Source of the DNA: a virus
Lineage: Duplodnaviria; Heunggongvirae; Uroviricota; Caudoviricetes
Direction: 5' to 3' (one strand)
DNA: 40,489 nt
Virus record (IMG/VR): IMGVR_UViG_2713896773_000021
The position numbers and the translations under genes were made by a program. Position 1 is the first letter of the stretch; each line of letters begins with the position of its first letter. This document shows positions 5,927 to 39,045 of this stretch, one piece after another. The notes under the pieces are model-generated. The model saw only the letters and a program-made list of their open reading frames with translations, had not been told where the DNA came from and ran no database searches.

Positions 5927-7855
5927 TCAGTAATTCATGGCCGTTGTTATTCTGCCATTATTTTCCGCATTATAGGTTTTTCGCTCACCCTTATCATTAA
6001 CCATTGTGATTTCGAGCTTAAGTGGTTGTTCTGACATTGCCTCTTTAAGAGACTTAGCCAGATTGTCGCCGAGTACACTTTCATCACTTTTCTTACCCGT
6101 ATCACTCAGAATGATGGATTCCCGATTTCTGTTCTGCGAGCCTGAGAGAATATCAGTTTCATCACTCGGGTTACTAAGAGTGCTGGAGTCACGATTTCCA
6201 GTTTGCGAACCTGAGATAATATCATATCGCTGTTGAGCCAGAACTTCCGGGCTACGTAAACCCTTCCACCGATCGTCAATGATGGCCGTCCGGACAGAAT
6301 CGCTCAGTTCATTTTCGGTATACGGCTGTGCTCCGCTTTCATGTTTAATCATTGCTGCCATCAGTGTTTTTAACACATCAGGATCGTGGAGATTAATACG
6401 CTGCTGCGCTCCAAACCCAGTACTTTTTGATACGGAATCAATATATGCACGAGTATTATTCTCTGATTGCGGAGCATAGGTATGAATAATCCCATCCAGA
6501 GTATTATTCCCCCTGTCACCATACAACATCAGCTGTCTCGCCATTGCAGCTCTTCCGTCGGCATCATTCGCAAAGGTAGAAAATCCGCCATTTTTACCCG
6601 TTGCGTTTGCTGCAGCCCTCAAATTACCGGGATTATTATTTCTGAAGCCAATTGCGTTATTCCTTGTTTCCCCGTAAGGAACATTGCCGCGTGCAACGTT
6701 GGATTGTGGCTGGCTGATAGCGGATAAGTCATTCTGCAATTGAATCGCAGAATCGGTCGCGCGGTAATTCGCATCGTACCGCTTTCTTACAGCATCAGTC
6801 ATGAAACCCGCGTCAACCTGCCCACGTTCACTGCGGGGTAAGCTGTTATAAAGTTCCTTATCGTTCTGAATGCGCCGTAGTTTCTCAGCATCATTGCTGT
6901 TGATAAAACCGAGAGCATGAGACAGCCCAGTAAAATCACCATTAGTGAACAGATCGGTAACACCTTCAAGGCCGTCTTTGACTGAACCATCCGAAAGAAT
7001 GGTCTTAAGTGCCTTGTTTTTTGAACGTTGCCACAGACCATCCCAGGATGCGCTGAGCTCATTCATAGTGCCGTTCACTTCACTCAATTGCTGATTTAGT
7101 GCCGGATCCACAGTCAGACCAAATTCATCCGATTTCGCCAGCAGCTTTTTCATGCGCTCACCGTCACGCATTAGCGCCAGCAATTCGGGCGTCAGCCCAA
7201 GTGCATCAGCGGCGGACTTCTGCTGTTCAGGTCGCAAGGTTGGAAAAATTTTTGCGATAGACTCCAGTGTTTTAAGGGTATTTACTGAACCATCGCTGTT
7301 TTTTTGGATTTGAGCACCAATTTGCGCCATCGCTGCCATAACCCCCTCGTTTTTACCACTGGCAGCCTCATTGAATGCTTTGAAAATACCTTCTATTGAT
7401 GCATTAGCGCTCTCGCTGTCTGCCCCAAGAATACGCATTGCCCCGGAAAGTCGGGTAAAATCGTCAACGCGCATTCCCGCATTTTTTGCCGAGACATCAA
7501 GATTATAGGCCTGACGGGATGCCTCCCGAAATCCATAAGCGACCTGTTTCAGTCCGTAGCCGGCAGCACCGGCTAACCCCAGCGCCCCCATCTTCCCCGT
7601 GAGCTCCCCCACCATTTTCAGTGGGGGAACCATGTCGCCAATAAACTGCACGTTATCCCGCGCGCTCTTCGACATATTCTCGAGGCGAGAAATAAAACCG
7701 CTCAGTCCGTCGGCTGTTTCCTGACCGCCTAACTTGAGCCCTTCTTTAGTTTTATCTAGCTTCGGCTCCAGGTCACGGACAGCCTCATTAATGCGGTCTA
7801 TAGCCTCGCTAACCTGGTCGCTGGCCACCAGCTCAAAATCAAAAGAATTACTCAT
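5927..7855 (-). CDS. Tail length tape measure protein
   Basis: 642-aa ORF immediately downstream of the frameshifted chaperone; helical N-terminal half typical of tape measure proteins. Confidence 0.75.
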   Translation of the reverse strand: MSNSFDFELVASDQVSEAIDRINEAVRDLEPKLDKTKEGLKLGGQETADGLSGFISRLENMSKSARDNVQFIGDMVPPLKMVGELTGKMGALGLAGAAGYGLKQVAYGFREASRQAYNLDVSAKNAGMRVDDFTRLSGAMRILGADSESANASIEGIFKAFNEAASGKNEGVMAAMAQIGAQIQKNSDGSVNTLKTLESIAKIFPTLRPEQQKSAADALGLTPELLALMRDGERMKKLLAKSDEFGLTVDPALNQQLSEVNGTMNELSASWDGLWQRSKNKALKTILSDGSVKDGLEGVTDLFTNGDFTGLSHALGFINSNDAEKLRRIQNDKELYNSLPRSERGQVDAGFMTDAVRKRYDANYRATDSAIQLQNDLSAISQPQSNVARGNVPYGETRNNAIGFRNNNPGNLRAAANATGKNGGFSTFANDADGRAAMARQLMLYGDRGNNTLDGIIHTYAPQSENNTRAYIDSVSKSTGFGAQQRINLHDPDVLKTLMAAMIKHESGAQPYTENELSDSVRTAIIDDRWKGLRSPEVLAQQRYDIISGSQTGNRDSSTLSNPSDETDILSGSQNRNRESIILSDTGKKSDESVLGDNLAKSLKEAMSEQPLKLEITMVNDKGERKTYNAENNGRITTAMNY

Positions 7856-21947: not shown

Positions 21948-23000
21948 TTATTCCCCTGTTAACGCCCTTATTTCCTCCACCGTCTGGCTAAACCTGTCCT
22001 CCTCGAGTTCAACGCCGATAGCCTGGCGGCCAAGTTCCAGCGCGATTTTCACGGTCGAACCGGACCCCATAAAGAAATCAGCCACCACATCACTAGGCTT
22101 ACTGCTGGCGTTGATGATCTGCCGCAACATGTCAGCGGGTTTTTCGCATGGGTGTTTACCTGGGTAAAACTGAACGGGTTTATGTGTCCAGACGTCGGTA
22201 TAAGGAACGGATACGGAAACAGAGAAATGCCGCCGAAGCGATTTGTACTCTTCGAGCAGCTCTGAATACTTGCGATTTAACGAATGCCACATAGCCACCA
22301 GCTGGTGGTGTGGTGTTGCCAGTTCGCCGTTCTGGTGCTTTTCGATGGCTACCTGCGTGAAAAGGGACTGAAGATTCCGGTAGTCTGATTCATTCGGTAA
22401 TTGCCACTGGCTACCGCTGAACCAGTGAGACACCATGTTCTTCTTTCCAGTCGCATCGGCTATTTGTTTTGAGGTTATGCCAAGCGCTTCACGTGCATCC
22501 CGGAAATAAGAAATTAGGGGAGTCATTACATGCTGCTTCAGCTCGCTTCCCTTCTCCGCGTAACCGTCGCTCTTTGGTTTATACGGCCCCTGGTAATGCT
22601 CAGCGAAGAGGATGCGCTCTGTTGCAGGGAAGTAAGAGCGCAGACTCTCTTTATTACAGCCATTCCAGCGGCCCGACGGTTTAGCCCAGATGATGTGGTT
22701 CAGGACGTTGAACCGCTCACGCATCATGATCTCAATGTCTGCCGCCAGGCGGTGACCGGAGAAAAGATAAAGACTGCCAGCAGGTTTAAGCACTCGCCAG
22801 AATTGTGCGAGGCACATATCAAGCCAGCGAAGATAATCCTCATCCCCTTTCCACTGATTGTCCCAGCCGTTGGGTTTCACTTTGAAGTACGGCGGATCCG
22901 TGACTATCAGGTCAATGGAGTTATCAGGGAGAGTGGCGATGTATTGCAGGCTATCAGCGTTGACTAACTCAACACTGTTTATATTTACAGTATTTTTCAT
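21948..23000 (-). CDS. DNA methyltransferase, beta-class (DPPY motif before FxGxG); N6-adenine or N4-cytosine specific
   Basis: ...IDLIVTDPPYFK... near N-terminus and ...DVVADFFMGSGSTVKIAL... near C-terminus. Confidence 0.75.
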   Translation of the reverse strand: MKNTVNINSVELVNADSLQYIATLPDNSIDLIVTDPPYFKVKPNGWDNQWKGDEDYLRWLDMCLAQFWRVLKPAGSLYLFSGHRLAADIEIMMRERFNVLNHIIWAKPSGRWNGCNKESLRSYFPATERILFAEHYQGPYKPKSDGYAEKGSELKQHVMTPLISYFRDAREALGITSKQIADATGKKNMVSHWFSGSQWQLPNESDYRNLQSLFTQVAIEKHQNGELATPHHQLVAMWHSLNRKYSELLEEYKSLRRHFSVSVSVPYTDVWTHKPVQFYPGKHPCEKPADMLRQIINASSKPSDVVADFFMGSGSTVKIALELGRQAIGVELEEDRFSQTVEEIRALTGE

Positions 23001-25552: not shown

Positions 25553-26614
25553 TTACGCTTTTGTTATTACGCCGATCGCCAGCGCTCGATTCATAAATCG
25601 GAATAGCAGCTCCAGCTGGGTACCGTGTTTTTTCTCGAACGCTGCAACATCAGCATGTAATTTGTCGTGACACTCTCTGCACAGAGGGATCACGAACAAA
25701 TCGTGGGCTTTAGTGGCGGTACCGCCCATGCCGTGACCAATGACATGGTGTGGATCATCCGCTGGCCGCCGGCAACCTTCACAGGGCTGGGTTTTAGCCC
25801 ACCGGGTATAGTCCTCATTCACCCACCTGCGGTGTTTTGGGCGCAACATGAATGATTCAGGGGATTCAGGATCCGCATGCAGAGCCAGAACCTGTGGCTG
25901 GTCATAGGCCACTTCCTGATTTGTTCCATGCTTTAAATGCGCAGCCGTGACCGCAGGGGTGACCTTCTTCTGCAAAATGTTTTTTGTCGGTGGCATCGGC
26001 ACAATGTCACTTTCGCGATATACGGATAAAAACGGCTCATCCGGTAAGCGAAGCGCATGCTGGGCCATCCTTTCCGTGATTGCATCAGCAATGCCTGAGT
26101 AAACGGCCCACCAGCACAATTCACCGAGGGATAGTTCACGCTCGTTGTTGTAGCCAAGCGAAGACAGGATAGAACTGATCAGCCAGTTAATGAGATTACG
26201 CCGGGCCAGTTCTGCCAGCGCCGCGGTGGTTTGCTCGCGCAGCTGGTTATCGCAATGCCAACAGAGCAACATTGATCCAGGGGGATGTCGCATCGTTACC
26301 AGCTCATGATGGTGATAATCAGTGTGCGGGTACTGGCATTCCTTCACGTTACGCTCTAGCCAGGATTCCAACCCGGACAAACCGCCTGCTGCACGGATAA
26401 CTCTCTCGTCGGTGAAGAATTCCTCGAGGGACTTATCTTCTGCCAGCGGCTGCCGGGCATCAGGGACGAGCCCCGACGGAAGCCCAGCCATGCTTTTTGG
26501 CTGAGGCTCCACCAGCACACGCCCCTGTTGAAACAAAGACATCAGTTCGCTACCCGGCTTTAACAGCACAAGCCCAAGGCGCGGAACAGTCTCGGCTGTA
26601 AACAGTCCTCTCAC
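25553..26614 (-). CDS. DUF968-like protein with C-terminal Cys/His cluster
   Basis: C-terminus ...CEGCRRPADDPHHVIGHGMGGTATKAHDLFVIPLCRECHDKLH...; GTG start overlapping upstream stop. Confidence 0.5.
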   Translation of the reverse strand: MRGLFTAETVPRLGLVLLKPGSELMSLFQQGRVLVEPQPKSMAGLPSGLVPDARQPLAEDKSLEEFFTDERVIRAAGGLSGLESWLERNVKECQYPHTDYHHHELVTMRHPPGSMLLCWHCDNQLREQTTAALAELARRNLINWLISSILSSLGYNNERELSLGELCWWAVYSGIADAITERMAQHALRLPDEPFLSVYRESDIVPMPPTKNILQKKVTPAVTAAHLKHGTNQEVAYDQPQVLALHADPESPESFMLRPKHRRWVNEDYTRWAKTQPCEGCRRPADDPHHVIGHGMGGTATKAHDLFVIPLCRECHDKLHADVAAFEKKHGTQLELLFRFMNRALAIGVITKA

Positions 26615-27317: not shown

Positions 27318-29255
27318 TCAGGCGGCTGCACCCGCCTTTTGATTTGCACATAATTCAGGAAGATTTGCTTCTACCAGCGCACGAGCGAACGGCGGCGGTA
27401 CTGCGTTACCACAGCGCGCTACCTGCTTGTCTTTGGCGTAACGATTGCCGCGATAGTCCTGATCGATAACGTAGCCGTCAGGGAAGCCCTGCGCCTTATA
27501 AAGCTCATGCGGTTGCAGCATGCGCATTCCGATATCGACGATCTGGTACTTAACCCCCTCGATCGTCACCAGCCATTCATCCTCGCTATCACCGCAGTAG
27601 GTTTCGAGGAATGTCCGGACCTCGCCAACGTGCTGGCCACCAGCGGTAATCGTCGGCATAGGTGTATCCATGGTCTGACCGTCGCGGCAGGTTCCGCGCA
27701 GCTTCACCAGGTGCGACGCAACTACCGCGTGGTGATCAACAGTAGTGACTGAGTGGGCAGGCTCATCCATACCAACACCCGGCCCCGTGTAATTCCCACC
27801 ATAGTGCTTCGCCAGGAACGCGCTCACCGTTGCAAACTTATTACCACCAGCAGTGACCGTGCCGAGCGGGTTATTCAGTTGAAGAACACGCGGTTCTTGC
27901 CCTGGGCGTTCGCCGTACCCCATCTGGATCAGTGTTGGAGTTACCAGCTGCGACTTACCGCCACCACCTGCAGTAATCGTCGCACTCGGTTCGTCAGCCC
28001 TGTGCCCAACACTGGCTCCAAACTGGCGGGCGATGACCGGCGCAACCACGCACGCGCGGGACTGCTTGAGGATTGTATGAGCGGGTTTATCCAGCGGGCG
28101 CGGCTTTGCCTGGTACTCACTGCCGCCATTGCCAGCCAGGAACGGTGTCAGGGCGGCCTCAACTACGCCAAGCGCATGCCCATTCCCGCCCGGGCGCGCC
28201 GACGTACCAGCGGTGACAGTTGGTACCGGCTCGGTCACTGGCTGCCCGGTGGCCCCGGTGCGGAATTTAGTAAGATGCGGTACCGCCAGTGCGTAGCCAT
28301 GCTTTTTAGTGATGGTCTGCAATGGCTCTAACAACGATTGCCCGCGGAAACAGTCATAACCTCCTTTCGTCGTGGTGTGGTTACACTTCACGATGAAAGG
28401 TGATGCGCTTTCGATAACAAAGCGCTGGATGCCGCGCGCGATACGTTTGAGCGTATTTTCCGCCAGCGGCTTTTTGCGGTCGAAGATGGACCGGGCCGGG
28501 ATATTCCAGTCAATGCACTCCGCCGCGGTACGCCATGGCGCCAGCTTGCCGCTTTGTACTTCCAGTGATTTTGGATCCCCATGAGTCGCTTCAGGCCAAT
28601 GAATCTTGCGGCCGTCACAGCGCATGACCATGAAGAAACGCTTTCTGATCGTCGGCGCGCCGTAGTCACATGCGCGCAGCTCCCGATAATCAACCTCATA
28701 ACCAAGCCCGGCGATCAGCTGTTGCGCCTGCTGGCCGTGCGGCTCAATGGCAAGGAATTCACAAACCTCAGCCAGCGCAGGGTGATTCGCCGCGATCCCC
28801 GTCGACAGCATGCCGACAAATGCCTCGAATGTTTCGCCAGCACGCTCAGGATCCGGGCGTAATTCTTCATCCAGCAGCGGGCCCCATGTCTTAAACTCTT
28901 CGACGTTCTCCAGCATCATGACGCGGGGACGTACTGCCAGCGCCCAGCGCAGGACAATCCACGCCAGCCCGCGAATCTCTTTCTTAACCGGCTTAGCGCC
29001 CTTCGCCTTGGAAAAGTGGCGGCAGTCAGGGCTAAACCAGGCCAGACCGACAGGTTTACCGCTGGTGGCTGCGCTTGGGTCAACGTCAAACACCGACTCG
29101 CAATAATGCAGCGTGTCAGGGTGATTCGTCTTATGCATCGCAATAGCGTTTTCGTCGTGGTTGATAGCGATATCCACGCTACGCCCGATCGCCAGTTCAA
29201 TGCCGGTACTCGCGCCGCCGCCACCAGCAAAGTTATCAACGATAATTTCACGCAT
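27318..29255 (-). CDS. DNA (cytosine-5)-methyltransferase-like protein with long C-terminal region of repeated modules
   Basis: Start at ATG 29255 (MREIIVDNFAGGGGAS...); FAGGGG (motif I-like), FSPDCRHFS (PC-motif variant), MLENVEEF (ENV motif); four P-x-T-[IV]-T-A-G-G modules in C-terminal half. Confidence 0.55.
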   Translation of the reverse strand: MREIIVDNFAGGGGASTGIELAIGRSVDIAINHDENAIAMHKTNHPDTLHYCESVFDVDPSAATSGKPVGLAWFSPDCRHFSKAKGAKPVKKEIRGLAWIVLRWALAVRPRVMMLENVEEFKTWGPLLDEELRPDPERAGETFEAFVGMLSTGIAANHPALAEVCEFLAIEPHGQQAQQLIAGLGYEVDYRELRACDYGAPTIRKRFFMVMRCDGRKIHWPEATHGDPKSLEVQSGKLAPWRTAAECIDWNIPARSIFDRKKPLAENTLKRIARGIQRFVIESASPFIVKCNHTTTKGGYDCFRGQSLLEPLQTITKKHGYALAVPHLTKFRTGATGQPVTEPVPTVTAGTSARPGGNGHALGVVEAALTPFLAGNGGSEYQAKPRPLDKPAHTILKQSRACVVAPVIARQFGASVGHRADEPSATITAGGGGKSQLVTPTLIQMGYGERPGQEPRVLQLNNPLGTVTAGGNKFATVSAFLAKHYGGNYTGPGVGMDEPAHSVTTVDHHAVVASHLVKLRGTCRDGQTMDTPMPTITAGGQHVGEVRTFLETYCGDSEDEWLVTIEGVKYQIVDIGMRMLQPHELYKAQGFPDGYVIDQDYRGNRYAKDKQVARCGNAVPPPFARALVEANLPELCANQKAGAAA

Positions 29256-30582
29256 TGACGGCCCCCTGCATGCTGTTGAAGAGACCACCAGCGGTCGTGA
29301 TAATTTCACTCGTCGGCATACGTTCGAGCCACAGCTGGTTGATATTGGCTTTCAGCTTGTTCTGCTGCGAAACAGGTAGAGCGTCAGCCCCTTCAATCTG
29401 GTTAAACACCAGTCCAACCTCAAGAGGCCAAACGCGCGATTCGTTTAACGCCTTGTCCTTTGATTCCTGCGTCTCACGGACATGGGCGCGGATCCCCCGA
29501 ATATTTGACCATTTGGCTTTATCCAGGCTTTCCATGGTCGCGATGAATTCACTGTGGTTAATGCCGTATTCTTTCGCAGACTCAACGGCAACCGTGCGTA
29601 ACCGCTCTGACATGTCTTGTTTCACGTCATCGCTATCAAAGGGCAATGTTTCCAGCCATGCATTAACACCCACCAGGATGCTCTCGCTGATCAGCTTTTT
29701 CGCTCTGTCGATCGTCAGCGGTGAAACATTGGTAAATTCAGGGTTTTCCAGAGAGTCGGCAGCCCAGGTATGACCAAACTTTGACTCGCTGAAGGTGTAC
29801 TCGTCTTTCTCGCCGAACGCCGCGACAACACAGGCCCAAGCCTCTACACCGCTGGTTTCCAGAATGGCTTTTTGGGTTAATGGCAGTTCTGCCTCTGATT
29901 TCTTCGGCACTACCTCAGCGTCCAGCTCTGGCGCCGCATCAGTTTGCGTTCTTCCCACGGCAAATTGGGCCAGCGACATCGCAGCACGGCCTTTGGCCTC
30001 CAGGTCGGTGCGGTTGATGTAACTGAAACGCTCACCCCGCCATGTTTTGTCGAAGACCACGATAGCGCCAGCAAAAAATGCGCTGGTGGGCTGCTGCTTT
30101 TCGTCTTTCGGCACGAACCATGTAGGAAGATCGAAACCAATTCGGCCACGGATGAATGTGACGTGATCTGCCTCTTCCGGCCACCACGTTTCACTCGTCG
30201 CAGACTTAATGAGAAAAACGTACCGACCACCCTTTTCTCGCATGGCCATAGCGTGGTTAATGATGTGGGTCATTCCGGTAACGGCCTGCTTGTCGTGGTA
30301 CTGAGAGCGGCTGTAAGGCGGGTTGCCAAACCCGGCACCACCGAGTTCTGCCAGCCGCTCTGACCAATCCTGCGTCAGGGCATTATCTTCAGCCGTGTAC
30401 CATGCTGGGCACTTCGCGTTGCTGTCGTCGGCAAAAAGGTCCAACACCAGAGGGCCGAACATCGCATTGATCCCCCAAAACAACAGATCCGGAGTGCGCC
30501 ATTGATCACCGACCTCTTTCAACTCGTGTGCTGGTTTTGAACGGAGTTCAGCCAGTGCACGGCAGTATTTATTTTCCATCAT
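29248..30582 (-). CDS. Phage Dam-like N6-adenine methyltransferase domain fused to ~260-aa uncharacterised C-terminal region
   Basis: QWRTPDLLFWGINAMFGPLVLDLFADDSNAKCPAWYT...GFGNPPYS (NPPY motif). Confidence 0.7.
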   Translation of the reverse strand: MMENKYCRALAELRSKPAHELKEVGDQWRTPDLLFWGINAMFGPLVLDLFADDSNAKCPAWYTAEDNALTQDWSERLAELGGAGFGNPPYSRSQYHDKQAVTGMTHIINHAMAMREKGGRYVFLIKSATSETWWPEEADHVTFIRGRIGFDLPTWFVPKDEKQQPTSAFFAGAIVVFDKTWRGERFSYINRTDLEAKGRAAMSLAQFAVGRTQTDAAPELDAEVVPKKSEAELPLTQKAILETSGVEAWACVVAAFGEKDEYTFSESKFGHTWAADSLENPEFTNVSPLTIDRAKKLISESILVGVNAWLETLPFDSDDVKQDMSERLRTVAVESAKEYGINHSEFIATMESLDKAKWSNIRGIRAHVRETQESKDKALNESRVWPLEVGLVFNQIEGADALPVSQQNKLKANINQLWLERMPTSEIITTAGGLFNSMQGAVNA

Positions 30583-33663: not shown

Positions 33664-34029
33664 ATGAATCATTTATTCACATGCTCATTTTGCGGAGCAA
33701 CCGAACTGGGAGCGATAAAGATCGTCGCAAAAGGTGGTAAGGACGAACCTGCCATCTGTTCGGAATGCGTAGTCACATGTGTAGAAAAAATGATCCTGAC
33801 TAAAAAATCAGAGGCTGAAAAACCAACCTCTGATAACGAAATAATATCAGTCGATAAAAAACTATTTAAAGAGCTTCTTCAGCTTGTCCTCAACCTTCCT
33901 GATTTCGGAAGTAAGCTGGCTGCTGTTGACATTGATAGTAGCTCCACATCGACAAGTGAAACTTTTGTTCGACTTGAGCCAAGCGATTTTCTTCTTCGTC
34001 TTAGTGCCGCACTTAGGGCATGCGGGTAA
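33664..34029 (+). CDS. Small protein with ClpX-type C4 zinc finger at N-terminus
   Basis: Start at ATG 33664; ...FTCSFCGATELGAIKIVAKGGKDEPAICSECVVTCVEKM... parallels ClpX N-domain (CSFCG...ICDECV). Confidence 0.5.
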   Translation: MNHLFTCSFCGATELGAIKIVAKGGKDEPAICSECVVTCVEKMILTKKSEAEKPTSDNEIISVDKKLFKELLQLVLNLPDFGSKLAAVDIDSSSTSTSETFVRLEPSDFLLRLSAALRACG

Positions 34030-34362
34030 CGTAATTTCCTGGTTATCAAAAGCGCCCATAAACATCCCTCTTGGTTGTGTGAGAACACCAAGATACCACC
34101 GCGCCTGATGTGGTTAAAAGCAGGCTAAAGCAATAACAAGTAACTCCCTGTTCTGGCGGCCCGGTGTTTTCCCGTGTATTTCCGGTAACCGCCAGCCTTT
34201 TTCAGGGCACAACAGAAAAGGGCATCACCGGGCGACGGGCTCATTCCCCAATCCACCCGGGCAAGAGGATAGCGATTGCAGTCGCCGACAAATGCAGGTG
34301 CCCTTCTCTGTTGTGTATGGAGAAAGTTCGGCGGTGGCAGCCGCCATAACGAGGGTAAAACC

Positions 34363-34734
34363 ATGAGTAATGACCGCATGACCGTAGTGCCCGACTTTTT
34401 GGGCGAGCTGGATGCCGGTGTGTTCATGAACAAAATCGCGGCAGCACTTAACACCACCGCGCTTGGCGTTCTGAACAACGGCAACAAAGGCAAAGTAGTC
34501 CTCACCTTTGATTTTGAGCGTATGGGTAATTCCGTTGAAGAGAAGCGCGTCAAGATCAAGCACAAGCTGAACTACAGCACCCCAACCCCGCGCGGTAAAG
34601 CCTCCGAAGAGGACACAACCGAAACCCCTATGTGGGTTAACAAAGGCGGGAAGCTAACCATCCTCCAGGAGGATCAGGGGCAACTGTTCGGGATCACCGG
34701 CGCGGTGGACGGAAAGCTTAAAGCGGCTCAGTGA
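34363..34734 (+). CDS. Hypothetical protein, YfdP-like
   Basis: Start ATG 34363 with GAGGG RBS; size and position before YfdQ-like gene. Confidence 0.45.
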   Translation: MSNDRMTVVPDFLGELDAGVFMNKIAAALNTTALGVLNNGNKGKVVLTFDFERMGNSVEEKRVKIKHKLNYSTPTPRGKASEEDTTETPMWVNKGGKLTILQEDQGQLFGITGAVDGKLKAAQ

Positions 34735-34790
34735 TCCGCAACAACAAACTCACTGATACCACTTTGATCATCAGTTAATAAGGAATTTTT

Positions 34791-35618
34791 ATGTCTCAGT
34801 TAGACAGCGGCACCTTCAAGCAGGTCAAAGACCTGGTCCTTTCCGGTTATCACCTGAATGATATTCATGGCCTGGCTTGCCCGACCGCATTACTGCCAGA
34901 GGGTACTGGCGTTGAAAGCCTTGAGCGCTTTTCTCTGGAACGTTTCCGCTTTCGTGGCGCAATGACCACAACCAGTATTGACGACTTCGCACGTTATTCT
35001 AAAGGTTATGCCAGCGCCAGCGAGCCAGCTCGTTGCTTCATTGACGCTGACAACATGACCGCCCGTTCAGTGTTCAACATCGGCACCCTGGATAACCCCG
35101 GTCACGCCGATAACGTTGCTTCAATCACTCTGAAGAAAACCGCCCCGTTTCGCGCGCTACTACAGATCGATGGTCAGCGTCTGAAACAAAAGCAAATCGC
35201 TGAATGGCTGGAAGACTGGAGTGATTACCTGCTGGCGTTTGACGCTGATGGTAAGACGATGGAGATTTCTCAGGCGGCTCAGGCCGTGCGTCGTATCACT
35301 ATCCAACAAGCAACCCAGCAGGATCATGAAACTGGTGATTTCGCTGGTAAAAAATCACTCATGCAAAGCGTCGAAGCAAGCAGCAAAGACGTAATGCCGG
35401 TAGCGTTCGAATTCAAATGTGTGCCGTATGAAGGTCTGGGCGAACGCCGCTTTAGCTTGCGTAACAGCCTGCTGACCAGCGATGAACCCTGCTTTGTTCT
35501 GCGCATCGTCCAACTTGAAGCCCAGGAAGAAGCAATCGCCAACGAATTCCGCGATTTACTGATCAGCAAGTTCGACGGTGAATCAGTGGAAACTTTCATC
35601 GGTAACTTTAAAGCCTAA
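34791..35618 (+). CDS. YfdQ-like protein (DUF2303)
   Basis: 275-aa ORF; size and context match the CPS-53 yfdP-yfdQ-yfdR arrangement. Confidence 0.55.
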   Translation: MSQLDSGTFKQVKDLVLSGYHLNDIHGLACPTALLPEGTGVESLERFSLERFRFRGAMTTTSIDDFARYSKGYASASEPARCFIDADNMTARSVFNIGTLDNPGHADNVASITLKKTAPFRALLQIDGQRLKQKQIAEWLEDWSDYLLAFDADGKTMEISQAAQAVRRITIQQATQQDHETGDFAGKKSLMQSVEASSKDVMPVAFEFKCVPYEGLGERRFSLRNSLLTSDEPCFVLRIVQLEAQEEAIANEFRDLLISKFDGESVETFIGNFKA

Positions 35619-35630
35619 TTGCTCTGCATT

Positions 35631-35658
35631 AAATCCCCGGCGCCGCGGGGATTTATTG
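35631..35658 (+). terminator. Hairpin (aaatcccc / ggggattt stem) with weak T tract between YfdQ-like and YfdR-like genes
   Basis: aaatccccggcgccgcggggatttattg. Confidence 0.3.
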
Positions 35659-35746
35659 AAGCGTAATTCCATTAATTATCGCCATCCGGCGAGGGATTCG
35701 TGCAACCAAAATCTGCGCGGTGCAGCGCGCCAATATGGAGAAAACC

Positions 35747-36286
35747 ATGAGCTACATTCAGACATTATCCGGCAAACACTTTAATTACCTCGATATCCAA
35801 CAGGACGATATCGTCATCGAGGATATTGCTACTGCGCTGTCTCATATCTGCCGTTTTGCTGGGCATCTTCCTGAGTTTTACAGCGTCGGCCAGCATAGCG
35901 TTTTAACCAGCCATCTCGTTCCGCAGGAGTTTGCCTTAGAAGCACTGCTTCATGATGCCGCCGAAGCCTACCTGCAAGATATTCCCTCACCGCTTAAGCG
36001 CCTGTTACCGGATTACCAGGTGATCGAAGCTCGCGTAGACGCTGCTATTCGCCAGAAATTTGGCCTACCGACGGAGCAACACCCAACAGTGAAATATGCC
36101 GATCTGGTGATGCTCGCCAGCGAACGCCGCGATTTTGAGATTGACGAAGGTTCCGTGTGGCCATGCCTCGATGGCGTTGTCCCGACGGACCTATTCATCA
36201 TCAATCCAGTTCGTCCAGGCCAGTCATACGGCATGTTCATAAATCGCTTTAATGAGTTGATGGAGCAGCGTCAATGCGCCGCATGA
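35747..36286 (+). CDS. HD-domain phosphohydrolase, YfdR-like 5'-deoxynucleotidase
   Basis: Start ATG 35747 with GGAG RBS; HD motif ...ALLHDAAEAYLQD...; ~180 aa. Confidence 0.65.
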   Translation: MSYIQTLSGKHFNYLDIQQDDIVIEDIATALSHICRFAGHLPEFYSVGQHSVLTSHLVPQEFALEALLHDAAEAYLQDIPSPLKRLLPDYQVIEARVDAAIRQKFGLPTEQHPTVKYADLVMLASERRDFEIDEGSVWPCLDGVVPTDLFIINPVRPGQSYGMFINRFNELMEQRQCAA

Positions 36287-36450
36287 AGGTAAAAGAACTC
36301 GTGGCGGAGGCGTTTGCCTCCGTGGCTGAATTGCCACCAAAGCATGCATCGCTTATGCGCGAAGTCGCTACCAGGCTTGAAGCTACGTTCGCAGCATTAA
36401 CCGAATCATTGGCGCAACTGGAACAGGAACGTAAAGGTAAAACGCAATGA
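36274..36450 (+). CDS. Small hypothetical protein (58 aa)
   Basis: My hand translation from ATG 36274 (MRRMKVKELVAEAFASVAELPPKHASLMREVATRLEATFAALTESLAQLEQERKGKTQ); overlaps neighbours by a few nt. Confidence 0.3.
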   Translation: MRRMKVKELVAEAFASVAELPPKHASLMREVATRLEATFAALTESLAQLEQERKGKTQ

Positions 36451-36701
36451 CCGTATTTGAATATCTCCAGGGCCACCCGAACGCCACCAGCGGTGAAATC
36501 GCAAGGGCGATGGGTAAAAAGACGCCAGCCGTAGCCAGCGCACTATCTCAGCTTTATGCAACAGGGAGAATTGTTAAGTCTGGCGCACGCGGTGGGATAC
36601 CGACATACCGCGTCAATGATCTGCCGTTTGGATGCAGCAATAACTTAACGCTGATATTTAACCAGCTTCTGCGAAACGTCCGCAAAGGAGCAGCCCAATG
36701 A
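36447..36701 (+). CDS. Hypothetical small protein (possible winged-helix DNA binding)
   Basis: 84-aa ORF, tightly packed in the early operon. Confidence 0.4.
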   Translation: MTVFEYLQGHPNATSGEIARAMGKKTPAVASALSQLYATGRIVKSGARGGIPTYRVNDLPFGCSNNLTLIFNQLLRNVRKGAAQ

Positions 36702-37015
36702 GCAAATTTACGGCATTACCAGTAGAACGCGACCAATACGGCTACTGGACTCACCCCGTCTATGAGCAATTTTGCGATGGTCGTGAATTTATCTCACCTG
36801 ATGAGTTCAACGCCTGGCTGGATAAAAACGGCCTCGAATGGACGGTAGTTTACCGGGATGAAGAAGACATCGATCCTGAAGTTGATGGTTACGATATTTC
36901 AGCCTGGCAGTCAGAATCGCCAGCCGGTGAAGGTTGGTTTGTCGGTTCAATTCACAACACCGAAGATGGCGCGGTATGCATCTGGTTACGTAACGTTGAA
37001 GGCGGTGCAGCATGA
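36698..37015 (+). CDS. Eaa-like early protein (tentative)
   Basis: 105-aa ORF, ATGA-coupled. Confidence 0.4.
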   Translation: MSKFTALPVERDQYGYWTHPVYEQFCDGREFISPDEFNAWLDKNGLEWTVVYRDEEDIDPEVDGYDISAWQSESPAGEGWFVGSIHNTEDGAVCIWLRNVEGGAA

Positions 37016-37368
37016 GCAAATCATTAAATGCACGCTGTATCCGCCGCTGGGAAGTTGAGTTCAAAGGCCTTTGTGATTCGAAGGTGAGTCCGTGGTGGAA
37101 TAAGCGCGATCTCCGCGGCTATATCCGTGAATGCGCCCTGACAACTGCTGAATGCATGGTAGAGAGCCTGGCCTATAACAACGCAATGCATGATTTTTTT
37201 GCTGAAAACGGCGATGACCGTGGCTGGTCTCCAGAATTCTCAGTTTGGTACGACAGCAGCCGTCGTGAGCAGTACAGGAAAGAAGCACTGAGCTACCTCA
37301 ATGAAGAGGCCAGCAACGACGAAATAGACGAAGAGATTCAGAACGAGCTGGAGGCCTGGAATGACTAA
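37012..37368 (+). CDS. Hypothetical protein
   Basis: 118-aa ORF, ATGA-coupled. Confidence 0.4.
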   Translation: MSKSLNARCIRRWEVEFKGLCDSKVSPWWNKRDLRGYIRECALTTAECMVESLAYNNAMHDFFAENGDDRGWSPEFSVWYDSSRREQYRKEALSYLNEEASNDEIDEEIQNELEAWND

Positions 37369-37630
37369 CTGCCCATCAACACCTAAACCTTTTCGCGCTG
37401 ACGGCGGCGATATAAGCACTGGCCGCCTCAAAGAAATAGCGGACAATCCATACGGTGACGAAGAGAAATGCTGTCTGGCTAAGCGTGTGCTGGCGTCACT
37501 TGAAGTGGAGCCTGTGGCGTGGACTGATGCGGATGAATTGCGTGATGTAAAGAATGGAGGCAGCGGCTATCTGTTTGCTATTGGTGGTGAGGCCAATAAA
37601 TTTGCTGATCCGCACCGCCAACGCCGGTAG
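37361..37630 (+). CDS. Hypothetical protein
   Basis: 89-aa ORF overlapping the previous stop. Confidence 0.4.
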   Translation: MTNCPSTPKPFRADGGDISTGRLKEIADNPYGDEEKCCLAKRVLASLEVEPVAWTDADELRDVKNGGSGYLFAIGGEANKFADPHRQRR

Positions 37631-38058
37631 TGCCAGAAGAAATGCCAAAAGGTCTGGCTGGTCAGATTGTCAGTCTTCTGGCGCATAACATCGGGGATAA
37701 ATTTTTGGCACAGAAAATCTGGAACGCCTGCCGCACCGCCATGCATCTGGGTGCCGAAAACACCGAGTCGCGCTGCACCATGCAGCCCGCGTCAGCATTA
37801 GATTCTTTGCCCTCAAATGCCGATTCGCGCTGCAGCAACTCTCCGGTGATTCCGGATGGTTGGAAACTGGTACCGATTGTGCCGACGGAGAAGATGGTTA
37901 TCGAAGGCTTCGAGTCGGAGCCAGACGAATTCTTCAGTAAATCTGAAGTGTGGGAGGCGTATCAGAAAATGAGTGGCTGCGAACAAGCGGCGCATCGGGC
38001 CAAGTTATGCTGGGCAGCGATGATCTCAGCAGCACCACAACAGGAGGTGAAGCTGTGA
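37630..38058 (+). CDS. Hypothetical protein
   Basis: 142-aa ORF (GTG at 37630 or ATG at 37642). Confidence 0.4.
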   Translation: MPEEMPKGLAGQIVSLLAHNIGDKFLAQKIWNACRTAMHLGAENTESRCTMQPASALDSLPSNADSRCSNSPVIPDGWKLVPIVPTEKMVIEGFESEPDEFFSKSEVWEAYQKMSGCEQAAHRAKLCWAAMISAAPQQEVKL

Positions 38059-38294
38059 CTAAATCAGAATTCCTCCAGAAGGTAGCGGTGCTGGCCGGTG
38101 AATGCCATAAGTTGGCCTGTGAGCTGGACATAGGCGATGAACGAATAGAGATGTTCGAGATTTATGAAGTGCTTCGCCGAATCCAGCGGAGTGGTGCAGC
38201 CGGTGAAATGCTGGCTGCAACAAACCCTTTACTATCCCCTGGAATACCTGAGGACACTGAATGGGTAAATTTCCATAAAGAGGATCATGCCTGA
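38055..38294 (+). CDS. Hypothetical small protein (79 aa, GTG start)
   Basis: AGGAGG 6 nt upstream of GTG 38055, which overlaps the upstream stop (GTGA). Confidence 0.4.
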   Translation: MTKSEFLQKVAVLAGECHKLACELDIGDERIEMFEIYEVLRRIQRSGAAGEMLAATNPLLSPGIPEDTEWVNFHKEDHA

Positions 38295-38470
38295 TGCCTA
38301 AGACAATCATCATAACCTTAGAAATTGATGTTCCGGAACACGCTACCGATAGCGACATATCAGATTGGGTAGACGTCGAGTACGGGCAGTGTGGTGGACA
38401 AAAATTAGATAACCCCTGCCGTGGCGATGCCACCGAAGTAATAAACCATTCATGGAAATTTGAGAGCTAA
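38294..38470 (+). CDS. Small hypothetical protein (58 aa, two Cys)
   Basis: My hand translation MPKTIIITLEIDVPEHATDSDISDWVDVEYGQCGGQKLDNPCRGDATEVINHSWKFES; ATG overlaps upstream stop. Confidence 0.3.
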   Translation: MPKTIIITLEIDVPEHATDSDISDWVDVEYGQCGGQKLDNPCRGDATEVINHSWKFES

Positions 38471-38472
38471 AG

Positions 38473-39045
38473 ATGAACGACTTAATGATTGACCTCGAAT
38501 CAATGGGGAAAAAGCCAAACGCGCCGATCGTCTCAGTTGGTGCTGTCTTTTTTAACCCTCAAACAGGTGAACTAGGCCAAGAATTCTATACAGCCGTCTC
38601 GCTTGAAAGCTCAATGGATCAAGGCGCGGTACCGGATGGAGATACGATTCTTTGGTGGCTAAAACAAAGCCCTGAAGCGCGCTCAGCTATCTGCGTTGAT
38701 GATGCGATGCCTATCACTGATGCACTGTCGGAACTTAGCCATTTCATTCACCGGCATGCATATAATCTCAAATACATGAAGGTCTGGGGTAACGGGGCCA
38801 CCTTTGACAATGTGATTCTGCGCGGAGCTTACGAACGCGCCGGACGCATTTGCCCGTGGGAATTTTGGAACGATCATGATGTACGCACGATTGTTACCCT
38901 CGGTCGCAGTGTTGGTTTCGATCCGAAGCGTGACATGCCATTCATTGGCGATGTTCACAACGCCCTGGCTGATGCGCGCCATCAGGCAAAATATGTGTCA
39001 GCAATTTGGCAGAAAATTATCCCTGCCACCAGCACCAACGAGTAA
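38473..39045 (+). CDS. DEDD-family 3'-5' exonuclease (DnaQ-like fold)
   Basis: N-terminal Exo I-like motif ...LMIDLESMG...; 190 aa. Confidence 0.55.
   Translation: MNDLMIDLESMGKKPNAPIVSVGAVFFNPQTGELGQEFYTAVSLESSMDQGAVPDGDTILWWLKQSPEARSAICVDDAMPITDALSELSHFIHRHAYNLKYMKVWGNGATFDNVILRGAYERAGRICPWEFWNDHDVRTIVTLGRSVGFDPKRDMPFIGDVHNALADARHQAKYVSAIWQKIIPATSTNE

Follow-up and report, generated by a model that had tools for sequence, protein, structure and literature searches.

The subject of this report is a gene for a DNA cytosine-5 (C5) methyltransferase in the virus record IMGVR_UViG_2713896773_000021, a stretch of 40,489 nucleotides (nt) from a member of the Caudoviricetes, the whole of which is called the window here. 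The best explanation of this gene, in which we have moderate confidence, is that it encodes an active, phage-borne, orphan 5-methylcytosine (m5C) methyltransferase that would be both multispecific and anti-restriction through an array of seven modules resembling target recognition domains (TRDs). One enzyme would then probably guard the phage DNA from several restriction enzymes at once. The sequence comparisons and the structural models show that the array occupies the place that the recognition domain has in every C5 methyltransferase and that its modules are conserved and individually dispensable.

27318..29255, minus strand: C5 methyltransferase coding sequence, 645 amino acids plus stop; orphan phage DNA cytosine-5 methyltransferase (from the list of open reading frames, ORFs, and PF00145)

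The start favoured by the database homologues is the ATG at 29255, from which the protein begins MREIIVDNFAGGGG and is 645 amino acids long; AGGGGG is found 6 nt upstream of this ATG. The longest version of the ORF (27318..29309, minus strand) opens with a GTG. This start at 29309 was rejected because the homologues begin at MREI and because the extension would overlap the Dam-like gene that lies upstream. The limits and the strand given to the gene in an earlier reading of the letters alone (the original prediction) were correct. An identical protein is found in NCBI on 580 contigs as 'MULTISPECIES: DNA cytosine methyltransferase [Enterobacteriaceae]' and is annotated only as 'DNA cytosine methyltransferase'. 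The exact protein is present in 13 of the 5,426 complete E. coli genomes, and it is widespread in Enterobacter, Klebsiella, Citrobacter, Salmonella, and Kluyvera.

The catalytic core and its variant motif IV

The original prediction proposed a C5-methyltransferase-like enzyme and a search with the PF00145 hidden Markov model (HMM) as a check. This assignment holds: PF00145 matches the protein in three stretches with 74 bits against a cutoff of 22 (E=1.9e-20), and the model of the query has a two-domain C5-methyltransferase fold, which Foldseek matches to 3g7u, DNMT1, MET1, M.HhaI, and M.HaeIII. The catalytic domain is modelled confidently by AlphaFold2 (AF2) for the full protein with an 87-sequence alignment, and the matches to PHROG 23072 and 116 denote a DNA methyltransferase. 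The motifs are as follows, where "invariant" refers to an alignment (A1) of 87 relatives that are 46–63% identical to the query:

29214..29231, minus strand: motif I, FAGGGG, which binds S-adenosylmethionine (AdoMet); amino acids 9–14; G11, G13, and G14 invariant
29010..29033, minus strand: motif IV in the variant form SPDCRHFS; amino acids 75–82; C78 the predicted nucleophile, D77 in place of the canonical Pro; S75, P76, D77, C78, and S82 invariant
28902..28910, minus strand: motif VI, ENV; amino acids 116–118; E116, N117, and V118 invariant
28638..28655, minus strand: motif VIII, PTIRKR; amino acids 201–206; QxRxR with Thr for Gln; T202, R204, and R206 invariant
27480..27524, minus strand: motif IX, RMLQPHELYKAQGFP; amino acids 578–592; aligns with DNMT1 and MET1; R578, M579, E584, and L585 invariant
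27390..27410, minus strand: motif X, GNAVPPP; amino acids 616–622; aligns with DNMT1 and MET1 (CGNAVPPP); G616, N617, and V619 invariant

The FAGGGG and ENV motifs that had been noticed from the letters are thus both there (amino acids 9–14 and 116–118), and the variant catalytic motif, FSPDCRHFS, is real and conserved across the family. HMMER pairs the 'fspdcrhfs' of the query with the 'ggppcqgfs' of 3g7u, and the APTIRKR of motif VIII aligns with the APTIRTR of the same protein. Motif IV keeps the Cys and the C-x-x-F-S spacing; Asp stands for the Pro before the Cys, and Arg stands for the Gln (Lys, Thr, or Arg in the relatives). The literal Pro-Cys signature is therefore absent, whereas the nucleophile Cys is retained.

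All the residues for C5 chemistry are present, namely, FxGxG, Cys78, Glu116, Arg204 together with Arg206, and the Gly-Asn of motif X. Since the SPDC form is invariant in the relatives, it is a clade signature under strong constraint rather than a product of decay. We read this form as compatible with ordinary methyl transfer, and the protein is, in all likelihood, an active m5C methylase. The picture given by the sequence is that of a PF00145 member whose one deviation is the literal Pro-Cys signature and which has an SPR/Phi3T-like layout without being a close relative of those enzymes (see below). The invariant Asp adjoining the nucleophile poses a small mechanistic question.

The least conserved part of the protein lies between motifs VI and VIII (amino acids 126–185, window ~28701–28880, minus strand), where the identity among same-length homologues is 74%, compared to 88–96% elsewhere. 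This segment, which has an extra insert of ~20 amino acids in some homologues (P0015, P0060, P0072), is modelled confidently by AF2 as three helices.

An exhaustive, profile-free search for relatives gave 8,619 cluster representatives with E<1e-3; with E<1e-30, there were still 2,589. In 150 listed representatives, the lengths range from 403 to 1113 amino acids, and motif IV is SPDC[KTR][HY][FH]S with isolated exceptions only. Relatives were found by tblastn in 355 phage records (phages of Gordonia, Mycobacterium, Pseudomonas, Arthrobacter, Vibrio, and Klebsiella and other phages), where they often adjoin a second methylase. In seven relatives of 931–1113 amino acids (P0131, P0189, P0209, P0198, P0215, P0221, and P0255), an intein is inserted directly before the Cys of motif IV, so these proteins read 'IVVHN/C[KTR]HFS' where the others have 'SPD/C[KTR]HFS'; Hint and LAGLIDADG homing-endonuclease domains were confirmed by Pfam in the three that were scanned (P0131, P0189, and P0209). 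That the intein precedes the nucleophile Cys without a gap is a further mark of how essential this residue is.

One way to read the broken Pro-Cys dipeptide is that the protein is a catalytically dead or regulatory remnant, that is, a DNA-binding protein derived from a methylase and without modifying activity. The TIGR00675 score, which is below its cutoff (see below), would fit such a remnant, as would the frequent silence of prophage methylases in lysogens (e.g., that of the prophage-encoded M.BceSV, which is inactive in its native host). However, silence in the lysogen reflects regulation rather than lost activity. Moreover, the nucleophile Cys and all the other catalytic residues are invariant in the 87 relatives despite identities of 46–63%, more than 2,500 clusters at E<1e-30 retain the full-length architecture, and inteins target the position of the catalytic Cys, which is typical of essential active sites. 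A remnant is considered highly improbable, close to negligible.

Another possibility is a different chemistry on the C5 fold, with the SPDC and PTxRxR motifs reflecting the transfer of a non-methyl group (such as carboxymethyl, as by CmoX) or a change to an RNA or single-stranded DNA substrate. CmoX (PDB 8yf3), a phage DNA cytosine C5-carboxymethyltransferase, has an Arg for the Asn of motif X (N304 in M.HhaI), and this Arg contacts the carboxyl group of carboxy-S-adenosylmethionine (carboxy-SAM); the enzyme is linked to genes for CmoA, the carboxy-SAM synthase, and CmoY, a ligase (PMC12783734). Unlike in CmoX, the Asn is kept here (Asn617) and is invariant in A1, so the determinant Arg of CmoX is absent. 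Neither CmoA nor CmoY ligase genes were found in a Pfam scan of part of the window ORFs or in the annotated genome of the related phage Eeyore. The residues that hold the cytosine (Glu116, Arg204, and Arg206) are invariant in A1, and a PTIRxR motif VIII also occurs in 3g7u, whose PPCQ motif is normal. The carboxymethyltransferase reading was rejected on the grounds of the retained motif X Asn. The suggestion of another base-modifying activity, made from the letters, is weakened by this Asn, since the CmoX-type Arg at its position is the sole determinant known for a C5 transfer of non-methyl groups; a different chemistry in general seems quite improbable.

The seven-module array and its exchange among relatives

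The region ahead of motif IX is made up of the following features:

27600..28370, minus strand: module array, seven TRD-like units; amino acids 296–552 (from the anchors, the module alignment A4, and in-register insertions and deletions)
28263..28358, minus strand: module A, anchor PLQTITKK; amino acids 300–331
28140..28262, minus strand: module B, anchor PVPTVTAG; amino acids 332–372
28029..28139, minus strand: module C, anchor PAHTILKQ; amino acids 373–409; precisely absent from the 609-amino-acid homologue P0026
27936..28028, minus strand: module D, anchor PSATITAG; amino acids 410–440; absent from P0079
27816..27935, minus strand: module E, anchor PLGTVTAG; amino acids 441–480; precisely absent from 605-amino-acid homologues, e.g., P0040
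27708..27815, minus strand: module F, anchor PAHSVTTV; amino acids 481–516; duplicated or replaced in homologues of 680–695 amino acids; resembles the 'EPAFTVNTIDRHGVAV' of Bacillus enzymes
27600..27707, minus strand: module G, anchor PMPTITAG; amino acids 517–552; exchanged for type K in some homologues

Four tandem modules had been claimed from the letters. The four T[IV]TAG motifs are indeed there, at amino acids 346, 426, 466, and 535 (20,000 shuffles of the protein gave a mean of 0.004 and a maximum of 1), but the number of modules has to be raised: the looser anchor P-x-x-[TS]-[IVL]-[TL] occurs in seven copies, at amino acids 311, 343, 391, 423, 463, 499, and 532, with a spacing of 32–48 amino acids, and none of the 20,000 shuffles reached seven (mean 0.12, maximum 3). 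The units are 31–41 amino acids long and, in the module alignment, have the common pattern (T)P-h-h-x-x-x-x-G, a Gly-rich loop, (D/E)-x-P-x-x-T-[IV]-T, 4–9 residues, and a hydrophobic strand. At the level of the DNA, the repetition is limited to 18–19 nt around the TxTAGG/anchor codons (74–89% identity), which indicates that the units are old and diverged; a recent DNA duplication was rejected as the origin of the repeats for this reason.

Most family members close the array with a terminal unit, 'PxxTxTxKDRxGLVTVxGxxYxIVDIGMRML' in the A1 consensus, directly before motif IX. The terminal unit of the query (window 27600–27660, minus strand), which lacks the anchor, reads CGDSEDEWLVTIEGVKYQIVDIG, and the Bacillus enzymes have an equivalent terminal unit, 'PAFTVNTIDRHGVAIGEYPKYRIRKL', at the same place.

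The modules behave as exchangeable cassettes. Homologues that are at least 78% identical to the query span 605–695 amino acids, and the differences in length correspond to the exact, in-register loss, gain, duplication, or replacement of single units: P0026 is without C, P0040 is without E, P0002 has an extra unit after F, and P0079 is without D and has an extra unit. Clustering of the 22-amino-acid module cores of 121 such homologues gave 13 module types in 12 architectures, including ABCDEFG, the query type (29 proteins), ABCDFG (26), ABCDEFFK (19, e.g., P0043), and ABCDEFFG (14). Further afield, a module HMM finds 1–11 modules per protein in 263 family members, the number of modules correlates with the length of the variable region (r=0.71, ~28 amino acids per module), and, in 150 diverged representatives, module types related to those of the query occur in many orders, mixed with many other types.

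The repeats, the conservation of which in homologues was a point on which the original prediction could have failed, are conserved. Among same-length homologues, the identity to the query is 92% in the array, compared to 96% in amino acids 1–125, 90% in 186–295, and 88% in 553–630; since the array and the catalytic core are similar in this respect, the modules are under purifying selection. The architectures that nature has produced by deleting and swapping modules (ABCDEFG, ABCDFG, and others) constitute a ready-made series for matching targets to modules.

An alternative to one target per module would be a single or relaxed specificity, with the seven units forming one composite DNA-binding domain (a beta-meander or solenoid that clamps or tracks the DNA); this is regarded as unlikely. 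Such a domain might read a long or degenerate site or allow a processive, dense methylation, and the number of repeats would tune affinity rather than targets. AF2 gives a long beta-strand at each module junction, and these strands could make one sheet; repeat proteins of the solenoid type likewise tolerate an altered number of repeats; the modules resemble proven TRDs weakly; and no family member has a known specificity. However, the 13 discrete, well-conserved module types in their varied orders and combinations fit individual functions better than equivalent structural repeats. Moreover, the same layout in the Bacillus phage enzymes is reported to give separate specificities, and family members with one or two modules exist, one of which yields a complete M.HhaI-like fold.

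Several observations weigh against an active, multispecific enzyme. The score with TIGR00675 (dcm, a narrower NCBIfam model) is 53, below the cutoff of 100.65, and the predicted nucleophile has a Pro-to-Asp change beside it. In the AF2 model, the array from amino acid 299 to 510 has mostly a predicted local distance difference test score (pLDDT) of <50, and modules A–F are not placed; with such scores, the model is silent on the packing and docking of the modules. AF2 placed just one module confidently in a natural two-module homologue. When an HMM was based on just the seven modules of the query, it matched nothing in the four Bacillus enzymes, and the similarity of the modules to the Bacillus TRDs seems marginal, resting largely on the short anchor. 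Methylation data for the query protein or for family members were not found in the sources searched. Finally, seven or more specificities would surpass what is known of any characterised enzyme.

Module G falls within the sole part of the array that is modelled at moderate confidence, with 10-residue block means of ~68–78 from amino acid 511. When the array by itself was compared to PDB sequences with phmmer, the sole match was at chance level (E=0.22).

Genomic setting and proposed function

The window is a lambdoid prophage. Over the methylase gene, its identity is 100% with Escherichia phage Phi06_2987 and 98% with both Flotzy and Eeyore, two other phages. The gene is located in the early rightward operon, where it follows a second methylase gene:

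29248..30582, minus strand: Dam-like N6-adenine methyltransferase, 444 amino acids, upstream of the C5 gene (PF05869, 1.9e-43; TIGR01712, 5.6e-61)

The stop of the Dam-like gene overlaps the start of the C5 gene by 8 nt, and phages phiNP and phiC725A have the same pair in their annotations. Upstream of the Dam-like gene are genes for a replication initiator and a CII-like protein, and Ant/Rha antirepressor, DUF968, and Q genes lie downstream of the C5 gene. No restriction gene is adjacent to the C5 gene.

The Dam domain spans only amino acids 19–199 of the Dam-like protein, leaving ~245 C-terminal amino acids without a Pfam assignment. The name 'phosphoadenosine phosphosulfate reductase', given to this protein by PHROG 33262 and by phage annotations derived from it, seems to be a misannotation that has been passed on. 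The 444-amino-acid protein and the C5 methylase fall into one 90% cluster of the protein collection; this suggests that fused or merged gene calls of the two exist somewhere. A third orphan methylase (350 amino acids, window 21948–23000, minus strand) is a beta-class N6/N4 amino-methyltransferase (PF01555, E=4e-42) that sits between the antiterminator Q and the lysis genes; its best solved relatives are 8urk and M.RsrI, and it has a weak HTH_3 match in mid-protein (E=8e-4, below the Pfam cutoff).

The DUF968 protein (353 amino acids, window 25553–26614, minus strand), encoded two genes downstream of the C5 methylase, has a weak HNH-nuclease match, and its relatives are annotated 'HNH endonuclease'. 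There is no sign in the data examined of this protein being the restriction partner of the C5 methylase. In Eeyore (L010), a 93%-identical relative, the early-left operon has a gene annotated 'queuine tRNA-ribosyltransferase' (6050–6802), possibly a DpdA-type gene for 7-deazaguanine DNA modification. No equivalent was found among the window ORFs scanned at 34000–39000, where the matches were to DUF2303, to an Rv2179c-like exonuclease, and, weakly, to a YfbR-like protein; the region differs from that of Eeyore.

The mechanism proposed here is by analogy with M.SPRI and M.Phi3TI. Each module, with its Gly-rich loop, (D/E)xPxxT[IV]T, and beta-strand, would dock in turn beside the active site and insert its own loop into the major groove. 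As in the Bacillus enzymes, several unrelated short sequences would be methylated, one per module, and some modules might be silent pseudo-domains. The position of the gene suggests that, on induction or infection, it would be transcribed with the early replication genes and the Dam-like methylase, such that the progeny DNA would be methylated beforehand and could escape the Type II restriction systems that it meets in a new host. To judge from the comparison of homologues, modules would be added, removed, or exchanged by recombination at their conserved junctions, which would retune the spectrum of protection. The gene is probably silent in the lysogen, as is the case for M.BceSV and for M.EcoGII and Mom (PMC12707154). 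Such silence would mean that methylome sequencing of the lysogen only could give a false negative. In Mcr+ K-12, toxicity is expected of multispecific m5C methylases.

If this multispecific, anti-restriction function is true, the strategy would be widespread in the prophages of Enterobacteriaceae, Pseudomonas, Vibrio, Mycobacterium, and Gordonia, with a bearing on horizontal transfer, on the host range of therapeutic phages, and on the interpretation of 5-methylcytosine (5mC) methylomes. This modification has long been hard to detect. The textbook example of a single phage enzyme that beats many restriction systems is the multispecific methylase, known so far from a handful of Bacillus phages and from a small number of other enzymes. 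The engineering of sequence-specific cytosine modification could also profit from a large catalogue of recognition cassettes that are small and portable.

Comparison with known methyltransferases

The closest parallel to the layout described above is with the Bacillus phage enzymes M.SPRI, M.Phi3TI, M.Rho11sI, and M.H2I, the sequences of which were taken from GenBank records and aligned. The original prediction had pointed to an alignment with the first two, and the same module layout was found in these as well as in M.H2I and M.Rho11sI. In all of these cases, a phage-borne orphan C5 methyltransferase has a single catalytic core and, in the interval from motif VIII to motif IX, tandem modules of ~35–50 amino acids; every module has a single Thr-[Leu/Ile/Val] anchor and, a few residues further on, a hydrophobic strand, and relatives differ by the in-register presence or absence of whole modules. 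The four Bacillus enzymes share a common core, and blocks of ~40–50 amino acids are present or absent in register in their variable region. The anchors of these blocks are of the type T[LIV][TSN][TSA], preceded by Pro, Thr, or His (SPTITT, SHTLSA, ATTLTS, SPTLTT, and PAFTVNT).

Between the 'EPAFTVNTIDRHGVAV' of the Bacillus enzymes and the 'EPAHSVTTVDHHAVVA' of module F, 8 of 16 positions agree (a count by eye). A family module HMM based on 732 modules places each of the four Bacillus enzymes ahead of 1,000 shuffled decoys, with weak matches (E=0.013–0.057) that are located at the anchors. The module common to the four enzymes, EPAFTVNTIDRHGVA, is presumably paired with GGCC, their sole common target, and the number of anchors is at least that of the published specificities. 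The sizes of the Bacillus TRDs and the assignments of modules to targets are deduced here from the sharing of modules in four sequences together with the lists of their targets.

The differences from the Bacillus enzymes are also clear. Beyond PF00145, the sequences are not closely related; motif IV has the form SPDC here, as opposed to SPCQ or FPCP; a conserved insert of ~90 amino acids (amino acids ~207–295, 'WRTAAECIDW...') lies ahead of the array here; the present protein has seven modules, and other family members have as many as 11, whereas the Bacillus enzymes have 2–4 anchors; and the SPDC family has its hosts among Proteobacteria and Actinobacteria, not in Bacillus. For the Bacillus enzymes, multispecificity has been proven by experiment; here, it is a prediction. 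The multiple targets of the Bacillus phage enzymes have been attributed to tandem TRDs (PMC8936443), which let one enzyme protect against many restriction systems (PMC12707154). An expert review of 2025 credits TRD arrays to the temperate phages of Bacillus only (PMC12707154).

The literature searched yielded no paper that characterises the SPDC family, calls it multispecific, or describes multispecific C5 methylases in enterobacterial or other Gram-negative phages. It is possible, though on balance rather doubtful, that this large, uncharacterised clade in the phages of Proteobacteria and Actinobacteria is a combinatorial cassette system outside the Bacillus phages, in which many TRD types are shuffled in register to give up to ~11 specificities per enzyme (seven here), exceeding any characterised methylase. 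M.BssHII and M.BceSV, in each of which one C5 methyltransferase has several targets, are likened to the present protein by description, not by sequence. M.BssHII was reportedly found by Schumann and colleagues in 1996 to have five targets.

The best solved-structure match, both by sequence (E=6e-7) and by Foldseek, is 3G7U, a putative methyltransferase from the E. coli O157 prophage CP-933R. It resembles the present protein in its APTIRxR motif VIII and its prophage origin; unlike the present protein, it is 376 amino acids long (348 in the crystal chain), has a normal GPPCQGFS motif IV, and lacks a module array. Finally, M.HhaI and M.HaeIII have a single recognition domain, a Pro-Cys-Gln motif IV, and a QxRxR motif VIII, and enzymes of this type are usually paired with a restriction enzyme, whereas the gene studied here is an orphan.

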